Notes under the pieces: model-generated
The model's database searches: none
The model's input: the letters and a program-made list of their open reading frames with translations, nothing else
Told to the model about the DNA's origin: nothing
Part shown: positions 3,720 to 20,000 of the stretch, piece after piece
Layout of the letters: every line of letters starts with the position of its first letter
Numbering within the stretch: the stretch's first letter is position 1
Made by a program: the position numbers and the translations under genes
IMG/VR virus record: IMGVR_UViG_3300032309_002680
Direction: 5' to 3' (one strand)
DNA: 20,000 nucleotides
Origin: an uncultured virus (IMG/VR IMGVR_UViG_3300032309_002680)
Lineage: Duplodnaviria > Heunggongvirae > Uroviricota > Caudoviricetes

Positions 3720-3729
3720 ATTAAATATG

Positions 3730-3763
3730 CTGGGGGTGGCTCTTGCCACCCCTAGTTTTATTT
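3730..3763 (+). terminator. Rho-independent terminator after the SSB gene
   Basis: 11-bp stem CTGGGGGTGGC / GCCACCCCTAG (one G-U pair), loop TCTT, followed by TTTTATTT. Confidence 0.85.
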
Positions 3764-3771
3764 AGTAAAAT
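3743..3771 (+). promoter_or_regulatory. Sigma70-type promoter TTGCCA-N17-TAAAAT, probably giving a leaderless transcript at ATG 3778
   Basis: -35 at 3743-3748 (inside the terminator hairpin), 17-nt spacer, -10 at 3766-3771, ATG 6 nt later, no SD. Confidence 0.65.
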
Positions 3772-10475: not shown

Positions 10476-11672
10476 ATGAAAACATTTTTGGCACAAGAGA
10501 AGTATCCAAAATATAAAAATATGATTAACAGCCAGACACATGTACCAGGACAAGATTTCTACCCAGTTTTAATTAAAAATCTTTTAACTGCCGATGAGTT
10601 AAAGGACCTTCAAGACATTTATGATAATTTTCCAGCAGATCAAATTAAAGTTCAGACCTACTCTGCTCACGCTAGTATTTATCCTACCCTTAAAAATAAA
10701 GAAGATATTATAAAAAGAGTTGAAAAATTAGCAAGCGAGGCTGTTGGAGAAGAGCTGGTAGTGCTAGATATTGAGGGGGCAAGGTATAGCAGAGAGTTTG
10801 GTTGGGAAGCAAAATTAGGTCCGCACTATGACGCAAGGCCAGTAGAAATGTATGTTTTAGATTTTCATGTTAAATCTAATGAAGATTGGAAATTAATTTT
10901 TGAATGTGATGAGTTTACCTTTGGAGACAATGAAGGATTACTGTTTAGCGGAACTGGAACAGTTCACTGGAGAGACCCCATACGAATTAGAGATGATTCA
11001 AGAATCGATTTGCTATTTTTCTGGTTGCAACACAAAAATCCTAGACCAATTTCTGATCAACATTCAAAAAATATGAAAGAAAGAGAAAAATTCTTTTTGT
11101 CAAACATTAATCCAGTCAGGCCATTATCAAAAGATCAGTGGTGGAAACCAATTAAGATATCAGAAGCTGCTGAAAAACATCCACATTATCAAAAAATAAG
11201 CGCAGAAATTTTCAATCCAATTATTCAAAATGAAATTTATATGCACCCTATTTTTAATCAAGAAAAAGAAATGATTTATTCATCTTGTAAAATAAAAAAT
11301 AATGAAATTGTCTCTGTTAATTTAGACGAAAATATGACAAAAAAGATTTCAGAAAAGATGTTGCACATATATACGGAATCTTCTATTAAATTTTTTGATA
11401 GTTGTGTAATTAGATTGTCTAATATAGATGATAGTTTAAGCAAAATATTTCATAAAGAAATAGAAGACGGTCAAGATTTTGTATCTATAATGTTTCCCAT
11501 GTCAGAAGATGGTGAAATAAAGCTTGATATTGATGGCAAGGAATTTGTAATTAAACATGCATATTGTGTTACATTTTCTCAAAATAAACAAAACGTAATT
11601 GTAAAAAGCATAAATTCTCCAATAGATTTACTTGTTTGCAGTTTTAAAATAAACAAAAGGGATAATCAGTAA
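10476..11672 (+). CDS. 2OG-Fe(II) oxygenase-fold protein with a tandem, degenerate second domain
   Basis: N-domain has HxD (GPHYD), distal His (VHWR) and a DSBH beta-strand pattern. The C-terminal half repeats these segments but lacks the distal His. Confidence 0.65.
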   Translation: MKTFLAQEKYPKYKNMINSQTHVPGQDFYPVLIKNLLTADELKDLQDIYDNFPADQIKVQTYSAHASIYPTLKNKEDIIKRVEKLASEAVGEELVVLDIEGARYSREFGWEAKLGPHYDARPVEMYVLDFHVKSNEDWKLIFECDEFTFGDNEGLLFSGTGTVHWRDPIRIRDDSRIDLLFFWLQHKNPRPISDQHSKNMKEREKFFLSNINPVRPLSKDQWWKPIKISEAAEKHPHYQKISAEIFNPIIQNEIYMHPIFNQEKEMIYSSCKIKNNEIVSVNLDENMTKKISEKMLHIYTESSIKFFDSCVIRLSNIDDSLSKIFHKEIEDGQDFVSIMFPMSEDGEIKLDIDGKEFVIKHAYCVTFSQNKQNVIVKSINSPIDLLVCSFKINKRDNQ

Positions 11673-12735: not shown

Positions 12736-13288
12736 TTTAGTAAAATCAAAAGCAAATAGAGTACTTGGCATCGATGCCTCAACTACATCTATAGCCTTTT
12801 GTTTAATGGAAAACTCAGTTCCAATTAAATGGGGGAAAATAAATTTAGCAGGACAAGATATTTATGAAAAAATATACAATGCTAAAGTTAGAATGAATTT
12901 AATGTTAAAAGAATTAAAGAGTGATTATATTGCCGTTGAGGGGGCGATACTTGTCAGATCACCAGATGCTGTGATAAAATTATCTTATGTCTATGGGGTT
13001 GTTATTGCTGAGCTTATGTCTACTGGCGCTAAGGTTATTACTATTAGCCCATCCTCGTGGCAGGCATTCATTGGAAACAAGAATCCAACAAAAGATGAAA
13101 AATCTATTATAAGATTAGAAAATCCTGGGTACGCAGAGTCTTGGTATAAAAATCAATTAAGAAATATGCGTAAGCAAAGAACTGTAGATTATTTTAATAA
13201 TAAGTATAAACTAGAAATTAATGATTTTGACGTAGCTGATTCTTTTGGCATTGCGTACTACGCCAATAATGTATTGACAAAAAGATAG
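12722..13288 (+). CDS. RuvC-like Holliday junction resolvase
   Basis: VLGIDASTTS, IAVEG and DVADSFGIA carry the RNase H-fold catalytic acidic residues. Confidence 0.85.
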   Translation: MNLASLVKSKANRVLGIDASTTSIAFCLMENSVPIKWGKINLAGQDIYEKIYNAKVRMNLMLKELKSDYIAVEGAILVRSPDAVIKLSYVYGVVIAELMSTGAKVITISPSSWQAFIGNKNPTKDEKSIIRLENPGYAESWYKNQLRNMRKQRTVDYFNNKYKLEINDFDVADSFGIAYYANNVLTKR

Positions 13289-13302
13289 GTTTTATCTATA
13301 AT
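13274..13302 (+). promoter_or_regulatory. Consensus sigma70 promoter TTGACA-N17-TATAAT
   Basis: -35 at 13274-13279 and -10 at 13297-13302, exact consensus with 17-nt spacing; the -10 overlaps ATG 13301. Confidence 0.7.
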
Positions 13303-13447: not shown

Positions 13448-13770
13448 TGCTAAAGCCAGTATTTGAAGATGTAAAAGATTTTGCATGTACCGATCTATAC
13501 CTTAAATCAGTAGGGGCTCCAGCAGGAAATAAAATATGGGAAGCCTGTCATGAAATTGCCAGTATGTTAATTGAAAAGAATATATCTTATGGCAACTCAG
13601 CGTTAGAGCCTGCAAGAATATTTTCAACGGCGGATTCAAAAGAGCAATTAAAGGTCAGAATTGATGATAAATTAAATAGAGTAAGAAACAATAAAGGTTT
13701 TGCTGGGGATAATGACATAGATGATTTAATTGGATACTTGATATTATATAAAATAGCTAATTCTAATTGA
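13447..13770 (+). CDS. Nucleotide-modification-associated domain 1 (Nmad1/DUF1599-like, all-alpha) protein
   Basis: KNISYGNS, RIDDKLNR and DDLIGYLIL motifs; SD GAGGAG upstream. Confidence 0.7.
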   Translation: MLKPVFEDVKDFACTDLYLKSVGAPAGNKIWEACHEIASMLIEKNISYGNSALEPARIFSTADSKEQLKVRIDDKLNRVRNNKGFAGDNDIDDLIGYLILYKIANSN

Positions 13771-13795
13771 CATTTCAGTCAACTAAAAGTATACT
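13767..13795 (+). promoter_or_regulatory. Promoter TTGACA-N17-TATACT for the terminase operon, with an inverted repeat over the -35
   Basis: -35 at 13767-13772, -10 at 13790-13795, ATG 13804 8 nt later with no SD; TTGAC-N6-GTCAA palindrome at 13767-13782. Confidence 0.7.
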
Positions 13796-13803
13796 TATGA
13801 CAT

Positions 13804-14340
13804 ATGGAAATTGAATTATCTGATCATTTTGATCGAATGAATAAAGTAGTTGAAGAACTTTTAAAAGGAAGTAATCCTACTCAAATATCTTCATTGACTG
13901 GCTTTAAAAGAGCTGAGGTCGTTGAGTATATAGATGAGTGGAAGTCTATTGTTAAAAATGACTCTACTTCTAGAGATAGAGCAAAAGAAGCTGTTTCTGG
14001 CGCAGACCAACATTATGCAATGCTTATTAAAGAAGCTTGGAAAACTGTAGATGATGCAGATCAGCAAGGTCAATTAAACGTAAAGGCTACTGCGTTAAAA
14101 TTAATTGCTGACATAGAGACAAAAAGAATTGCAATGTTGCAACAAATTGGATTACTAGATAATCAAGAAATTGCAGATCAAATTGCAGAAACAGAAAGAA
14201 AGCAAGATGTTTTAGTTTCAATATTAAGGGATGTTGCGAAGGACTACCCAGATATAAGAAGAGAAATTATGAAAAGACTTTCGCAAATAACTGGAGTGGT
14301 TGAACCTATAGAGATAATAGAGTCCAAGAATGTCATTTGA
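13804..14340 (+). CDS. HTH-containing helical protein, putative terminase small subunit
   Basis: N-terminal HTH (NPTQISSLTGFKRAEVVEYI), coiled-coil body, 11-nt overlap with the terL start. Confidence 0.6.
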   Translation: MEIELSDHFDRMNKVVEELLKGSNPTQISSLTGFKRAEVVEYIDEWKSIVKNDSTSRDRAKEAVSGADQHYAMLIKEAWKTVDDADQQGQLNVKATALKLIADIETKRIAMLQQIGLLDNQEIADQIAETERKQDVLVSILRDVAKDYPDIRREIMKRLSQITGVVEPIEIIESKNVI

Positions 14341-16129
14341 TTTTTCTGATATCATTGACATGCTTGATGGCGAAGAGTTTGACGAAAAGCCAGTATCGCT
14401 AAGAGATTTTGTAACTGATGAAAAATATCTAGGTCTACCAGAACTTTCAGAATATCAATACACATTAATTGAAAAAAGCTCACAGGTGTATAAAGAGTCT
14501 ACTTTAATAAAACTTTTTGGAGAAGAAGAAGGACATAGAATGTTTAAGCAAACTGCCAACGAGGTAGTTGCTCAGCTAGGAAAAGGATCTGGAAAAGACT
14601 ACTGCTCAACAATTGCAGTTTCGTATATTGTATATCTATTGCTTTGCTTAAAAGACCCCGCGTCTTATTACGGAAAACCTCCTGGCGATTCGATAGACAT
14701 TATCAATATTGCCATTAACGCCCAGCAAGCAAGCAACGTATTCTTTAAAGGGTTTAGAACTAGAATTGACAAGTCCCCATGGTTTGTTGGAAAATACTCT
14801 GAAAAAGCTTCTGAAATAAAATTTAATAAAAATATAACCGTACACTCTGGACACTCTGAGCGTGAGGCTTGGGAAGGCTATAACGTAATAGTAGTTATCC
14901 TAGATGAGATATCTGGATTTAGTGTTGAAAATACTACTGGGCATGAGCAGGCAAAAACAGGAAGCCTTATTTATGAAATGTATCGTGCTTCCGTAGACTC
15001 TAGATTTCCAGACTATGGCAAGGTAATTTTGCTATCTTTTCCAAGATATAAAAATGACTACATCCAGCAAAGATATGATGATGTTGTGGCAGACAAAGAA
15101 GTTGTAGTTAGATCTCATAGATTTAAATTAGAAAAAGATCTACCAGATGGAACTGCGGGTAATGAATTTGATATAGAGTGGGAAGAAGATAATATTATTT
15201 CTTATAAGTACCCAGGAATGTACGCACTTCGAAGGCCAACATGGGAAGTTAATCCTACAAGAAGTATAGAGGATTTCAAAATAGCTTTTTACAAGAACGC
15301 ACCAGATGCTCTTGGAAGATTTGCATGTATGCCTTCAGAAGCAATAGATGCATTTTTTAAATCAAGAGAAAAAATTGAAAAATCATTTAGTAATTTAGGA
15401 GTAGCTGTAGATCAATTTGGAAGATTTGAAGATTGGTTTGCACCAGATCCAGATAAAGAATATTTTATTCATGTTGACCTTGCTCAAAAGCACGATCATT
15501 GTGCTGTTGCAATGTCTCACGTTCAAAAATGGGTTAACATAAAAGTAACAGATACATATTCTCAGCCTGCACCAATAGTTGAAGTAGATGCCGTAAGATT
15601 TTGGACGCCAACTCCAGATAAATCAGTAGACTTTACTGAGGTTAAGGATTACATATTGTCTTTAAAAACTAAAGGATTTAAAATTAGGTTATGCACTTTT
15701 GATAGATGGAATTCTCACGACATGATGCAACAATTAAAGCAGTATGGAATAAACACAGAATTGTTATCTGTTGCTAAAAAACATTATGACGACATGGCAA
15801 TGGTGGTCTTAGAAGAAAGATTAAAAGGACCGCACATTCCTTTACTTATAGATGAATTGTTACAGCTAAGAATTATGAGGGATAAGGTAGACCATCCAAG
15901 AAAAGGATCAAAAGATTTAGCAGATGCTGTTTGTGGTTCAATATTTAATGCTATATCTCATACAAGGTTTGATACAAATCAAGAAATAAAAATACATAAC
16001 TACGAGTCAATGAGTTATGATAATGATTTTGGAGTTGCAAAAGAAGAAGAGTACGTTCAAAATATGATAAGAGCTCCCCGAATACCACAAGAGCTCAAGG
16101 AAGCAATGGATAGGATGATGATAATATGA
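14330..16129 (+). CDS. terL: Terminase large subunit
   Basis: Walker A GKGSGKD, Walker B VVILDE, coupling motif LLSFPR, nuclease motifs HVDLA..HD, TFDRW and KDLADA. Confidence 0.92.
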   Translation: MSFDFSDIIDMLDGEEFDEKPVSLRDFVTDEKYLGLPELSEYQYTLIEKSSQVYKESTLIKLFGEEEGHRMFKQTANEVVAQLGKGSGKDYCSTIAVSYIVYLLLCLKDPASYYGKPPGDSIDIINIAINAQQASNVFFKGFRTRIDKSPWFVGKYSEKASEIKFNKNITVHSGHSEREAWEGYNVIVVILDEISGFSVENTTGHEQAKTGSLIYEMYRASVDSRFPDYGKVILLSFPRYKNDYIQQRYDDVVADKEVVVRSHRFKLEKDLPDGTAGNEFDIEWEEDNIISYKYPGMYALRRPTWEVNPTRSIEDFKIAFYKNAPDALGRFACMPSEAIDAFFKSREKIEKSFSNLGVAVDQFGRFEDWFAPDPDKEYFIHVDLAQKHDHCAVAMSHVQKWVNIKVTDTYSQPAPIVEVDAVRFWTPTPDKSVDFTEVKDYILSLKTKGFKIRLCTFDRWNSHDMMQQLKQYGINTELLSVAKKHYDDMAMVVLEERLKGPHIPLLIDELLQLRIMRDKVDHPRKGSKDLADAVCGSIFNAISHTRFDTNQEIKIHNYESMSYDNDFGVAKEEEYVQNMIRAPRIPQELKEAMDRMMII

Positions 16130-16365: not shown

Positions 16366-16681
16366 AGAAGATGACTCTGCTTTGTTTAAACACTATGTAG
16401 AAATTGGTGCAATAGATTTTGTTGGAGTAGAAAAAAATGGAGAAGCTATTTATAAAGTAAATGAAATTGCTAAAGATATTGCTCCAGAATTATGGAAAGC
16501 TCATACAGATTACATTGATGAAACATTAATTGGGCTATACAAAGAAAATTTAATTTCTGTTTCCTATAACGAAAATCTAGAAGCTACTTTTAGCGCAACT
16601 CCAGAAGGCCTAAAGCGTTTAAAAAAACACTATGGAATTGTTCCAGAAAGAGATCCTAAAGATGATAATTCTTGGGGTTAA
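16352..16681 (+). CDS. Phage hypothetical protein, 109 aa
   Basis: Overlaps both neighbours; no recognised motif. Confidence 0.7.
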   Translation: MNLFEEDDSALFKHYVEIGAIDFVGVEKNGEAIYKVNEIAKDIAPELWKAHTDYIDETLIGLYKENLISVSYNENLEATFSATPEGLKRLKKHYGIVPERDPKDDNSWG

Positions 16682-18083
16682 CGAAACCTCACACGATGCT
16701 TCTGTTTCTTTAATAGAAAATGGAAAAATTATTTTTGCAGGACACGCAGAAAGATATAGCAAGCAGAAGAATGATTGGTATATCAATAATAGTTTAGTTA
16801 ATGATGCTTTGTCATATGGGGCACCTGATGCTATAGCCTACTACGAAAAACCCCTTCTAAAGGCCTCTAGGCTATTTATAAAGGGTGGCGTAGGGGATTG
16901 GAAGCCTAAGTTTAACATAGAGGGTATACGAAGAAAATCATTTAGCCATCATTACTCACACGCATGTGCTGGATATTATACAAGTAGGTTTTCTGACTCA
17001 GCAATTGTAGTTCTAGATTCAATTGGTGAATACAATACTTCTACTATTTGGGTAGGAGAAGGTGAAAAAATAAAATTAAAGTTTAAGCAAAATTACCCAG
17101 TAAGTTTTGGATTGTTCTACTCAGCCTTTACTCAGCTGGTCGGACTTATGCCAAATCAAGAAGAGTATATTATGATGGGGATGGCTGCTTATGGAGATTG
17201 GACAAAATATTATAAGCAGATAGATAATTATTTTCCTAGATATGACAAGCAAAAGTATAATTTTCACAAAGGAATTACTGACTGGGGATGGGTTTCAGAG
17301 CAAGATAAGTTTAATATTGCAGCAGCAGTTCAAGTAGTTTATGAACAAAGGCTTATAGATTTTATGAGGTACGCAAAAGATTTAACAAAAAAGAACAATT
17401 TGGTTTTTATGGGAGGGTGTGCACTTAACTGCTCAGCAAATACTAAGTTATGGGAAATATTTAATGACGTATGGATAATGCCAAACCCAGGAGATTCTGG
17501 AAGTTCTTTGGGCGCAGCAGCAGCACTTTACGGAAAACATTTAGATTGGCAGACTCCATACCTAGGGTACGATTTAGGCGGGGAGTACCCAGTAAATAAA
17601 ATAATTAAAGGTTTAGCTGACAATAAAATAGTTGCAGTTGCCTCTGGAAGAGCAGAGTTTGGCCCAAGGGCTTTGGGAAACAGAAGCATACTTGCAGATC
17701 CAAGAGATCCAGAAATAAAAAACAAAGTAAATTTAATAAAAAAAAGAGAATCATTTAGGCCTTTTGCACCAGTCGTAATGGAAGAGCATGCAAGCAAATG
17801 GTTTGATATTAATTTTAGTTCTCCTTATATGCAGTACGCCGTCAAATGTTTAAAGCCAGACATAATACCATCTGTTGTACATGCTGACGGTACTTCGAGA
17901 GTTCAAACAATTAATAAAAATCAGCACCCAGGACTGTATGAAGTACTAAAGCAATGGTTTGATTTAACTGGAGTACCAGTTTTGTTAAACACCAGCTTAA
18001 ATGTTAAGGGACAGCCTTTAATTAATGACGAAAAAGACATCCTGGAGTGGGAAAATTATTACCAACATCAAATAATTTCATAA
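16662..18083 (+). CDS. O-carbamoyltransferase, NodU/CmcH/TobZ family, compact 473 aa
   Basis: MIILG..HDAS, HHYSHA, VVLD..GE, GLFYS, MGMAAYG, GGCALN, PGDSG, GRAEFGPRALGNRSILADP, KKRESFRPFAP, HADGTSRVQT, LLNTSLN. Start set at ATG 16662. Confidence 0.95.
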   Translation: MIILGVNETSHDASVSLIENGKIIFAGHAERYSKQKNDWYINNSLVNDALSYGAPDAIAYYEKPLLKASRLFIKGGVGDWKPKFNIEGIRRKSFSHHYSHACAGYYTSRFSDSAIVVLDSIGEYNTSTIWVGEGEKIKLKFKQNYPVSFGLFYSAFTQLVGLMPNQEEYIMMGMAAYGDWTKYYKQIDNYFPRYDKQKYNFHKGITDWGWVSEQDKFNIAAAVQVVYEQRLIDFMRYAKDLTKKNNLVFMGGCALNCSANTKLWEIFNDVWIMPNPGDSGSSLGAAAALYGKHLDWQTPYLGYDLGGEYPVNKIIKGLADNKIVAVASGRAEFGPRALGNRSILADPRDPEIKNKVNLIKKRESFRPFAPVVMEEHASKWFDINFSSPYMQYAVKCLKPDIIPSVVHADGTSRVQTINKNQHPGLYEVLKQWFDLTGVPVLLNTSLNVKGQPLINDEKDILEWENYYQHQIIS

Positions 18084-18092
18084 TGGTATAAT
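18084..18092 (+). promoter_or_regulatory. Extended -10 promoter (TGgTATAAT), leaderless or near-leaderless for 18101
   Basis: Starts immediately after the carbamoyltransferase stop; ATG 8 nt after the -10; no SD. Confidence 0.7.
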
Positions 18093-18100
18093 GTGTATAT

Positions 18101-18559
18101 ATGCTAATACATAGAGGTAAGTGGATCAAGCAATCTGAAGACGTTACATGCGCCATGCTTTGGAAAGAGTGGTCTGGCAATTTTCCAGATGACAGATTGG
18201 TTTTGTTAGCCAAGGAAAGAATTGCAGATTACACCAGAAAAGACTGGGACTCAATGGTTGAAGAAGCCCACGAATTAAACTCATACCTTGCAGAGTGCAT
18301 TAATAACAATATTCCAGTAGAAGATCCTAGGGCAGAGCATGGATTTGATTTGTTTGCTGATCATTATGTTAAATGGTTTTTTCCGATAGATGAAGAATAT
18401 CTATTAAAGCTTAGCTTAGAAACTCAAGTAAATAAAAAGTATGCTTTATTTTTTGAAAAGCAAGCCCCAGGACTTAGCCAATACCTTTTAAAATTAATTA
18501 AAGCACATTCCCATAAAAGAAAAGATGGATTAAATAGTTTGTCGACAAATAAAATATGA
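18101..18559 (+). CDS. Stand-alone TipAS-like (antibiotic-recognition) domain protein
   Basis: ERIADYTRKDW, LAECI..NIPVEDPRA and FEKQAPGLSQYL match the remembered TipAS pattern (R.A.YTKEDW, G.P.DS..A, D...PGLA.Y). No MerR HTH is present. Confidence 0.68.
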   Translation: MLIHRGKWIKQSEDVTCAMLWKEWSGNFPDDRLVLLAKERIADYTRKDWDSMVEEAHELNSYLAECINNNIPVEDPRAEHGFDLFADHYVKWFFPIDEEYLLKLSLETQVNKKYALFFEKQAPGLSQYLLKLIKAHSHKRKDGLNSLSTNKI

Positions 18560-19197
18560 AAGAAAGCTTTTCTCCAAAACCTGTTAATATTGATAATATT
18601 ACAAAACAAATAGGTACAGGTATCGACAACATAAAAGTCTTTGAAAATTATTTAACTGATAAAGAATCTGAAACTGCAATGTCAATTATTTCAAGGTATA
18701 AGGTAAAAGAAGGAGTAAATCATTCTTACCCAATACATACCTTAGAAGAATATACACCTTCGCAAGAAGAACTATTATTTACCAACATAATGAGAAAAAA
18801 ACTTATTCATAAAGTAACCCTAGAATACAAAATGAAATTTGTACAAGATAAACCTTTTCTGTATATAGTTCATCCAACTGGAACCTACATAGATCCGCAT
18901 ACAGATATATTAGACATAGATGAGCCAGACTATGAAAACGATACTTACGAATCTCAAATAGAAAAATATCCATACTTGTGGAGTGGACATTTATCTGTCC
19001 TTGCATATTTAAATGACGACTACGAGGGAGGAGAGCTTTACTTCCCAGACTTTAATTACAGCATTAGACCTAAAAAAAATATGCTAATTCTTTTTCCAGG
19101 TAATACACATTACGTTCATGGTGTTTCAGAGATTACTTCTGGAACTAGGTACACTATTTCTCAATGGACTCAATTCTCAGAATTTAATAAGAAATAA
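18556..19197 (+). CDS. 2OG-Fe(II) oxygenase, prolyl-4-hydroxylase-like
   Basis: HxD (PHTD), SVLAYLNDDYEGGELYF, PKKNMLILFPG, VHGVSEITSGTRYTISQW; ATGA overlap with the TipAS-like gene. Confidence 0.92.
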   Translation: MKESFSPKPVNIDNITKQIGTGIDNIKVFENYLTDKESETAMSIISRYKVKEGVNHSYPIHTLEEYTPSQEELLFTNIMRKKLIHKVTLEYKMKFVQDKPFLYIVHPTGTYIDPHTDILDIDEPDYENDTYESQIEKYPYLWSGHLSVLAYLNDDYEGGELYFPDFNYSIRPKKNMLILFPGNTHYVHGVSEITSGTRYTISQWTQFSEFNKK

Positions 19198-19202
19198 AGA
19201 CT

Positions 19203-20000
19203 ATGAAGTTTCATTGGATGCACAGGTTTGACTTTGGAGATTCAGAAACTGAATTAGTTCAAATGGCAAGAGATTTAGAAAGAGCAAAAGCTTATTCTGT
19301 TTTATTAACATATTCTATAATTTCAACAGACTATGTTCCCTTTTTGCAAAGCATGATAAGAGTATCAAAACACCTTAAGTTTATGATGGCGTTTAGGGCT
19401 TACACAATGAGTCCAGAATATGCAATTAGATTTTTTAATACAATGAATGTTCACTATAAAAATAGGGTAACATTTAATTTAGTTGCTGGAAAAATGCTTG
19501 AAGATGAACAAAAAGAAGTAATTGATATGTATAATTTTGACGAGTCTTTAATAAATACTGTCGAAAAAAGAATAGAGCTTGCAGATAAGTGGGCAGATAA
19601 ATTTTTTAATAAGATAGGTGATCAAGCGCCAGTTTCTTATACAATTGCAAATTCTCCAATGACAATTGACTTGGCTAATAAATGGACAGACTATGCTATT
19701 ATCAATGATAGTGGATTAGAAAAATCATTTTTAAAAGAATCAATTAATAAATTAAAAAATACTAAGATAGTATTAATTATTGACCCTTTAATTAGGGAAA
19801 CAAAAGAAGAACTTGATCAAGATATAGCATATTACTATCAGGAGTGGACCCCTAATAAATCTGAAAAACCTTATGTTTTAGAAAAAAGAGAGCATTTAAT
19901 ACGTGGAAGCATGGAAGAGGTTAAGCAGAAAATTAGAGATATATCTAAAGAATACGGGATAGATGACTTTATGATAGTAACCAGCCAAAAAAATATATCC
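19203..20000 (+). CDS. Luciferase-like (LLM class, SsuD-like) flavin-dependent monooxygenase, 3'-truncated by the window and absent from the ORF track
   Basis: Open from ATG 19203 to the window end (266 codons): MKFHWM...AYSVLLTY...LKFMMAFRAYTMSPEYAIR...RVTFNLVAG...LIRGSMEEVKQKIRDISKEYGIDDFMI. These match SsuD/LLM segments (LKFLVALRP..SP, GR..FNLVTG, LVG..E.V....G.D.F). Confidence 0.78.
   Translation, partial: MKFHWMHRFDFGDSETELVQMARDLERAKAYSVLLTYSIISTDYVPFLQSMIRVSKHLKFMMAFRAYTMSPEYAIRFFNTMNVHYKNRVTFNLVAGKMLEDEQKEVIDMYNFDESLINTVEKRIELADKWADKFFNKIGDQAPVSYTIANSPMTIDLANKWTDYAIINDSGLEKSFLKESINKLKNTKIVLIIDPLIRETKEELDQDIAYYYQEWTPNKSEKPYVLEKREHLIRGSMEEVKQKIRDISKEYGIDDFMIVTSQKNIS

Follow-up and report, generated by a model that had tools for sequence, protein, structure and literature searches.

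The locus and its virus

The window, a 20,000-nt stretch from an uncultured virus, carries genes for replication, recombination and packaging. After the terminase gene we found a carbamoyltransferase gene, a promoter and three closely spaced open reading frames (ORFs):

14330..16129, + strand: terminase large subunit; left anchor of a variable accessory region and lineage marker in our comparisons
16632..18083, + strand: NodU-like carbamoyltransferase (stop codon 18081-18083); an independently assorting accessory gene that forms no fixed unit with the three ORFs
18084..18092, + strand: extended −10 promoter TGnTATAAT, TGGTATAAT, directly after the carbamoyltransferase stop and 8 nt before the ATG of ORF1
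18101..18559, + strand: ORF1, stand-alone protein of 152 aa with a predicted TipAS fold and no MerR HTH (Pfam, model, alignment)
18556..19197, + strand: ORF2, 2OG-Fe(II) oxygenase (PF13640) of 213 aa; the genome encodes several paralogues
19203..20000, + strand: ORF3, luciferase-like flavin monooxygenase of compact size (SsuD/MsuD-like); the window contains 266 of its 278 aa, the gene running off the end

ORF1 and ORF2 overlap by ATGA and a gap of 5 nt separates ORF2 from ORF3. The promoter and the tight coupling of the three genes are thus as a preliminary description of this DNA had placed them.

A complete relative, G001 (110,973 bases, with terminal repeats), has a terminase 99% identical to that of the window and served as whole-genome stand-in for its virus. 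WhiB is encoded by G001, by 22 of 30 related records and by all eight near-complete ones; passages of two studies describe whiB as a mark of freshwater actinophages (PMC6802176; PMC10202952). The terminase is about 62% identical to those of Streptomyces phages such as Francob and Gilson, and GC content is about 34% (30-38%). Nine lake metatranscriptome runs shared words with the region, 5-24% of the words each, and contigs from four such runs cover it in part, although assembled contigs say nothing about transcription, its start sites or operon structure. The virus is a whiB-bearing freshwater actinophage of about 111 kb. WhiB, the kinship of the terminase and the lake-run word matches indicate that its host is an actinobacterium, probably living in fresh water. 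Streptomyces was considered as host and rejected in view of GC content and terminase distance.

Elsewhere in the window, near-perfect −35/−10 promoters (12 and 11 of 12) at 13274-13302 and 13767-13795 precede genes of 107 and 178 aa that lie before the terminase. A strong terminator-like hairpin of 12 pairs (3729-3766) follows a 222-aa gene and is itself followed by a promoter-like site. The 398-aa gene at 10476-11672, the N-terminal part of which is weakly oxygenase-like (PHROG 2954), is missing from L007 (L007:1545-1573). This relative is otherwise 99% identical to the window, marking the gene as a recent single-gene gain or loss.

Within the window the extended −10 motif is no more frequent than expected by chance (3 found, 2.0 expected; at least 3 in 65 of 200 shuffles), and no −35 match for the element at 18084-18092 is among the 60 of 65 sites listed. 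We consider the promoter real because it is conserved across TipAS loci. TGnTATA(A/C)T precedes the TipAS start in all 23 rows compared (the window plus 22 loci, several of them near-identical), with a gap of 6 nt in 15 and of 8 nt in 8 rows, and is kept even where the upstream gene is a tRNA. Among 20 distant TipAS loci, 9 also have TATA(A/C)T 6-7 nt ahead of the given start. Set against 1536 distinct starts, the extended motif showed a sharp peak at a gap of 6 nt (56 starts, compared with at most 11 at any other gap), and in G001 it lies 6-7 nt before 8 genes. The motif appears to be the ordinary, genome-wide extended −10 promoter of this phage and would give rise to leaderless or near-leaderless transcripts, a reading that draws on established actinobacterial biology.

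The promoter belongs to the TipAS gene and travels with it; it is not a cassette promoter. Downstream sequence could be followed in relative L013, where ORF3 ends at 278 aa and a second promoter-like motif lies directly 3’ of it, ahead of an Hsp20 gene. With this second motif, transcription of the three genes as one unit is plausible. Close spacing behind a promoter is not enough to define a module in these phages: many accessory genes have a leaderless promoter of their own and are shuffled singly. The Hsp20 gene in this position next to the monooxygenase occurs as two alleles of about 48% identity, which alternate within one terminase cluster (L007:10021 versus L013:10063). Further downstream of the three ORFs, L013 (11259-13907) encodes a protein of 882 aa that looks secreted and contains eleven copies of an acidic five-residue repeat; the protein varies in length among relatives.

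Predicted folds and conserved residues

ORF1 scored 38.4 bits against the TipAS family PF07739 (cut-off 23.8). A Foldseek search with the model of ORF1 (pLDDT 75) returned TipAS (PDB 2MBZ) as its sole match (E 7e-4, TM 0.74), and VIA superimposed both with Z 13.1 and an rmsd of 3.2 over 132 residues. The structural matches after TipAS were AlbA (Z 8.1) and then globins (Z about 5). A profile comparison with TipAS gave E 4e-10. Judged by its model, ORF1 has the TipAS fold, which bears out the earlier assignment of this 152-aa protein as TipAS-like.

TipAS of Streptomyces lividans and the TipA class (SkgA, Mta, Lmo0526) share this fold with ORF1 over nearly the whole chain, and TipAS of S. lividans is likewise a short stand-alone protein product. 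The two systems differ in genetic setting: TipA has a long isoform with a MerR HTH, whereas ORF1 is viral, has its own gene and promoter and lacks the HTH. The MerR HTH (PF13411) was found in none of five TipAS-bearing records searched. They also differ at the binding site. Passages of PMC7762955 describe capture of thiopeptides by TipA through an active cysteine, with contacts at F123, Y131, V135 and W139. In ORF1 both TipAS cysteine positions are replaced (I96 and K103), leaving it without the cysteine for covalent capture, and none of 40 members has a cysteine at either column; the conserved Cys17 sits elsewhere. We take the active cysteine of TipA to be Cys214. The TipA lid residues Y131/V135/W139 align to L20/W24/F28 of ORF1, position 28 being variable, and the viral lid is rebuilt as a Cys/Trp helix unlike that of cellular members. 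The parallel to thiopeptide binding drawn in the preliminary description is probably lost with these cysteines and most of the lid residues.

Residues conserved in ORF1 are C17 (33 of 36 members), W21 (35 of 37), W24, D48, W49, M52, H88, W92 and F93 (40 of 40), with D48, M52 and H88 present in 39 of 40 members each. Four pairs within the ORF1 family gave dN/dS values of 0.05-0.20, indicating purifying selection. The sequences point to a functional viral family, the ligand of which is probably not a thiopeptide. The albicidin sponge AlbAS is also built from TipAS-type units like ORF1, but as a tandem of two within a MerR regulator, whereas ORF1 is a single unit. AlbAS sequesters albicidin non-covalently (passages of PMC6078987), which shows that the fold does not need a covalent cysteine to act.

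The calls of ORF2 as 2OG oxygenase and of ORF3 as luciferase-like monooxygenase were likewise upheld. ORF2 scored 43.9 bits against PF13640 (cut-off 27) and its catalytic residues are intact: H115, D117 and H188 of the HxD...H triad, and R198, the 2OG-binding arginine, with residue roles as established for the family. Of 30 records, 28 contained PF13640 proteins; G001 had 4 matches and other records had up to 14. For ORF3 the support is structural, though its score against PF00296 (17.7 bits) lies below the cut-off of 27.9. Its model (pLDDT 90) matched SsuD in Foldseek with E 3.6e-13 and TM 0.71, and also MsuD and SfnG; the best sequence-profile matches of the ORF3 family were SsuD (E 5e-9) and MsuD. 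By this model ORF3 has the TIM-barrel fold of luciferase-like monooxygenases (PF00296, FMNH2-dependent), in common with SsuD, MsuD and SfnG. It differs from these enzymes in its length of 278 aa, its low identity (14-17%) and scores far below NCBIfam cut-offs, and it is not an SsuD equivalog (TIGR03565, 21.7 bits against a cut-off of 518). The best matches belong to FMNH2 enzymes, which share its strand motif, and a match to an F420 enzyme was obtained as well (E 1e-10). The nearest Atlas clusters of ORF3 are viral. Flavin reductases (PF01613, PF03358) were each found in 0 of 5 monooxygenase-bearing records; with no phage reductase partner among the records searched, ORF3 would depend on a reductase of the host.

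Two tandem luciferase-like monooxygenase genes occur in a distant phage (L082:189-1747), and G023, G048 and G072 also have two each. Monooxygenases with a fused C-terminal 2OG domain (466-487 aa) were seen at L085:1599-2999, L363:1310 and L364:1628 and in G031-G036, G038, G043 and G048, preceded by a 2OG gene and a gene of 83-89 aa.

ORF2 and ORF3 add new members to known families, and the accessory island around them is likewise of a familiar kind. T4-like cyanophages contain multi-copy 2OG oxygenases and sporadic carbamoyltransferases, according to passages of PMC3037559. As here, the same families occur there sporadically and in several copies per genome; the phages studied here differ in being whiB-bearing actinophages related to Francob, Gilson and their kin.

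Distribution and assortment of the genes

A profile search over 1.84 billion representatives yielded 57 matches to the TipAS family, 38 of them at E 1e-10 or better and mostly stand-alone proteins of 120-140 aa. In a tree of 55 rows, one long branch (99/95) split 41 rows from 14 cellular-type matches; these 41 were labelled phage by type, the contig context being known for part of them. PF07739 matched all 40 aligned members at E 0.1, and PHROGs matched none of the 40. A tblastn search of 50,697 GenBank phage records found no relative of ORF1 or ORF3, and pattern scans of GTDB genomes, which reach close relatives, turned up none in cells for either the TipAS clade or the monooxygenase. A BFVD search gave no match at E 0.001, and a single-protein scan with P0105 gave a 9-residue match only. 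The Streptomyces anti-phage metabolites invoked in the preliminary description showed no tie to these genes of a freshwater phage, considering its GC content, the distance of its terminase and the lack of ORF1 and ORF3 relatives among the GenBank phages.

Databases already name such proteins TipAS automatically. In the main text of open papers we found no description of a stand-alone viral TipAS clade, and the lone phage paper names a host gene; passages of PMC13250531 and PMC11098121 name no phage-encoded sponge. With about 40 diverse members, the stand-alone viral TipAS clade is widespread in lake-phage lineages and is worth following up. The proteins are small, probably soluble and easily expressed, have a known ligand-binding fold and evolve under purifying selection. 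A carbamoyltransferase gene is followed at L192:4256-5342 by a tandem pair of TipAS-like genes, both very divergent (family-profile scores of 49.6 and 33 bits).

We then compared the neighborhoods of the genes in related viruses, most of the records being fragments. The 120 TipAS matches in fetched loci, many of them repeated, fell into 17 clusters at 62% identity. The oxygenases lie directly downstream of TipAS in one of these 17 clusters, that of the window; neither was there in 14, and two ended at a contig edge. A second count used 124 loci, in 29 terminase clusters, in which the sequence between the terminase and an anchor gene (Hsp20, nuclease or lysin) is visible. Genes beyond this interval escape the count (the contig behind L273/L349 is an example), and its loci had been selected by way of different genes. 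The trio occupied the region after the terminase in 1 of the 29 clusters; TipAS without monooxygenase occurred in five (two of which are one contig) and monooxygenase without TipAS in seven. Co-inheritance of the three genes was therefore not found: they assort independently, an outcome that the preliminary description had itself named as refuting its proposal.

Single loci illustrate this assortment. In L025-L034 the TipAS gene lies between tRNAs and a CHAP lysin gene. Close orthologues of the monooxygenase (67-87%) are placed after an unrelated 320-aa gene in L056-L072, and in L075 the monooxygenase has a promoter-like motif of its own. The same is true of the oxygenase orthologue in L084 (59%), which occurs without TipAS or monooxygenase. 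Among records at least 90% complete, the monooxygenase was present in two of four with TipAS and in four of seven without. Alleles are swapped gene by gene even within the window's cluster: TipAS and oxygenase are 75% and 100% identical to those of the window in L016, and 97% and 85% in L013. Since the genes move separately in related viruses, the trio is probably not one drug-destroying unit.

Some association was nevertheless seen. All 34 loci of the window's terminase cluster have the trio (with contigs repeated among them), and it recurs at 78-87% identity in L037/L038, contigs without a terminase. TipAS and oxygenase genes overlap again in L024 and L043, the terminases of which are 78-79% identical. 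Another lineage has a monooxygenase-2OG fusion at most about 5.7 kb from the TipAS gene, an arrangement shown by 8 of 20 distant TipAS loci, and some monooxygenase was detected in 11 of 18 distant-TipAS records; the members G077 and G092 of the fusion lineage are without TipAS. A weak functional connection may exist, most of all for TipAS with the oxygenase.

A link between TipAS and monooxygenase in a set of 50 records (3 with both, 8 with monooxygenase only, 39 with neither, p 0.008) was rejected, as the three records had been preselected for TipAS and belong to one lineage. The remaining 47 records contained TipAS in none and monooxygenase in eight.

Possible functions of the three genes

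The explanation we favor, with a probability of about 0.6, is that three separately mobile accessory genes share one promoter and encode a sponge, a hydroxylase and a flavin monooxygenase that work separately. In the window’s phage and its close kin the three genes would have gathered in the variable region after the terminase behind a host-type leaderless promoter, and they would probably be co-transcribed while serving separate functions. The modelled fold and the known family members suggest that ORF1 is a soluble sponge or carrier binding a hydrophobic small molecule non-covalently. ORF2, its catalytic residues in place, would be a hydroxylase from the multi-copy PF13640 family, perhaps acting on a protein or the envelope. 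ORF3, with its modelled SsuD-like fold, is likely to be an FMNH2-dependent enzyme fed by a host flavin reductase.

A context scan of 54 proteins, 45 of them from G001, gave the surroundings of this set. G001 scatters a P450, a catalase, a sulfotransferase, two methyltransferases, two dehydrogenases, an Asp/Asn-hydroxylase-like protein and DUF6065 proteins over several regions. The cytochrome P450 (244 bits) lies at 71450-72889 of G001 (L240:14450-15889) and the catalase at 95271-96266; P450 was present in 6 of 86 records (G001, G002, G006, G034, G035 and G036). The multiple PF13640 copies and the dispersed tailoring genes suggest that ORF2 and ORF3 are members of a large interchangeable set. 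Together with the P450, catalase, methyltransferases, sulfotransferase, dehydrogenases and carbamoyltransferase, the trio probably forms part of a dispersed tailoring and redox repertoire likely to reshape the surface or the redox state of the infected cell.

As to the ligand of ORF1, freshwater actinophages might have domesticated a TipA-class drug-sensing domain as a stand-alone sponge. It could hold heme, a scarce cofactor (through His88/Met52 and Cys17), for phage heme enzymes in heme-auxotrophic hosts, or else an environmental antibacterial or anti-phage compound, countering chemical defence. We offer this as a tentative idea that we consider unlikely. Were ORF1 to bind heme or an antibacterial compound, it would be a novel type of small-molecule sponge in phages, and phage biology would be linked to the heme dependence of dominant freshwater bacteria.

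It seems unlikely to us that the TipAS-fold protein binds heme or another tetrapyrrole and hoards or delivers it in a heme-auxotrophic host, for the phage P450 and catalase. The rank of globins next after TipAS and AlbA would fit such a role, but Z values of about 5 are common among helical proteins. The near-invariant His88 and Met52 and the conserved Cys17 could serve as ligands, and His88 may resemble the proximal position of globins; His88 is, however, also present in 12 of 14 cellular TipA-class matches and may therefore be structural. Both heme enzymes are encoded by G001, yet catalase was found in 1 of 19 records only. P450 was present in 5 of 23 TipAS-bearing versus 1 of 63 TipAS-free records (Fisher p 0.005), a link that was looked for in retrospect, comes from fragmentary records and reduces to about three lineages versus one. 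Heme binding by ORF1 would be compatible with independent assortment of the trio. A preprint describes acI actinobacteria as heme auxotrophs (bioRxiv 10.1101/2021.01.11.426183), a connection that would presume an acI host.

A protein partner in place of a small molecule, for instance a host regulator titrated by the viral TipAS fold with the Trp/Phe residues as interface, is an improbable alternative. It would agree with the rebuilt Cys/Trp lid helix, with the single long-branch clade apart from the cellular matches and with a promoter of its own in many contexts; no candidate partner emerged, and TipAS and AlbA, its relatives of solved structure, have small molecules as ligands (passages of PMC7762955 and PMC6078987).

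That the trio is a joint module binding and oxidising an antibiotic or anti-phage metabolite, as proposed in the preliminary description, is very unlikely: its single promoter, its translational coupling, its persistence down to about 80% identity, the monooxygenase-2OG fusion of the other lineage and the sequestration of antibiotics by TipA-class domains (passages of PMC7762955) are outweighed by the independent assortment of the genes, the missing TipA cysteines and replaced lid residues, the absence from the GenBank phage records searched, Streptomyces phages included, and the multiple copies of the oxygenase family across these genomes. What stood of this proposal were the family calls, the promoter and a plausible joint transcript; joint inheritance did not. 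A predicted complex of ORF1 with the oxygenase, heme and iron included, scored 0.00 without contacts and counts neither way.

In TipAS-bearing relatives (L027:10132-11491) a 2-hydroxyacid-dehydrogenase NAD-binding domain adjoins an APS-kinase-like gene, and sulfation-related genes recur there.
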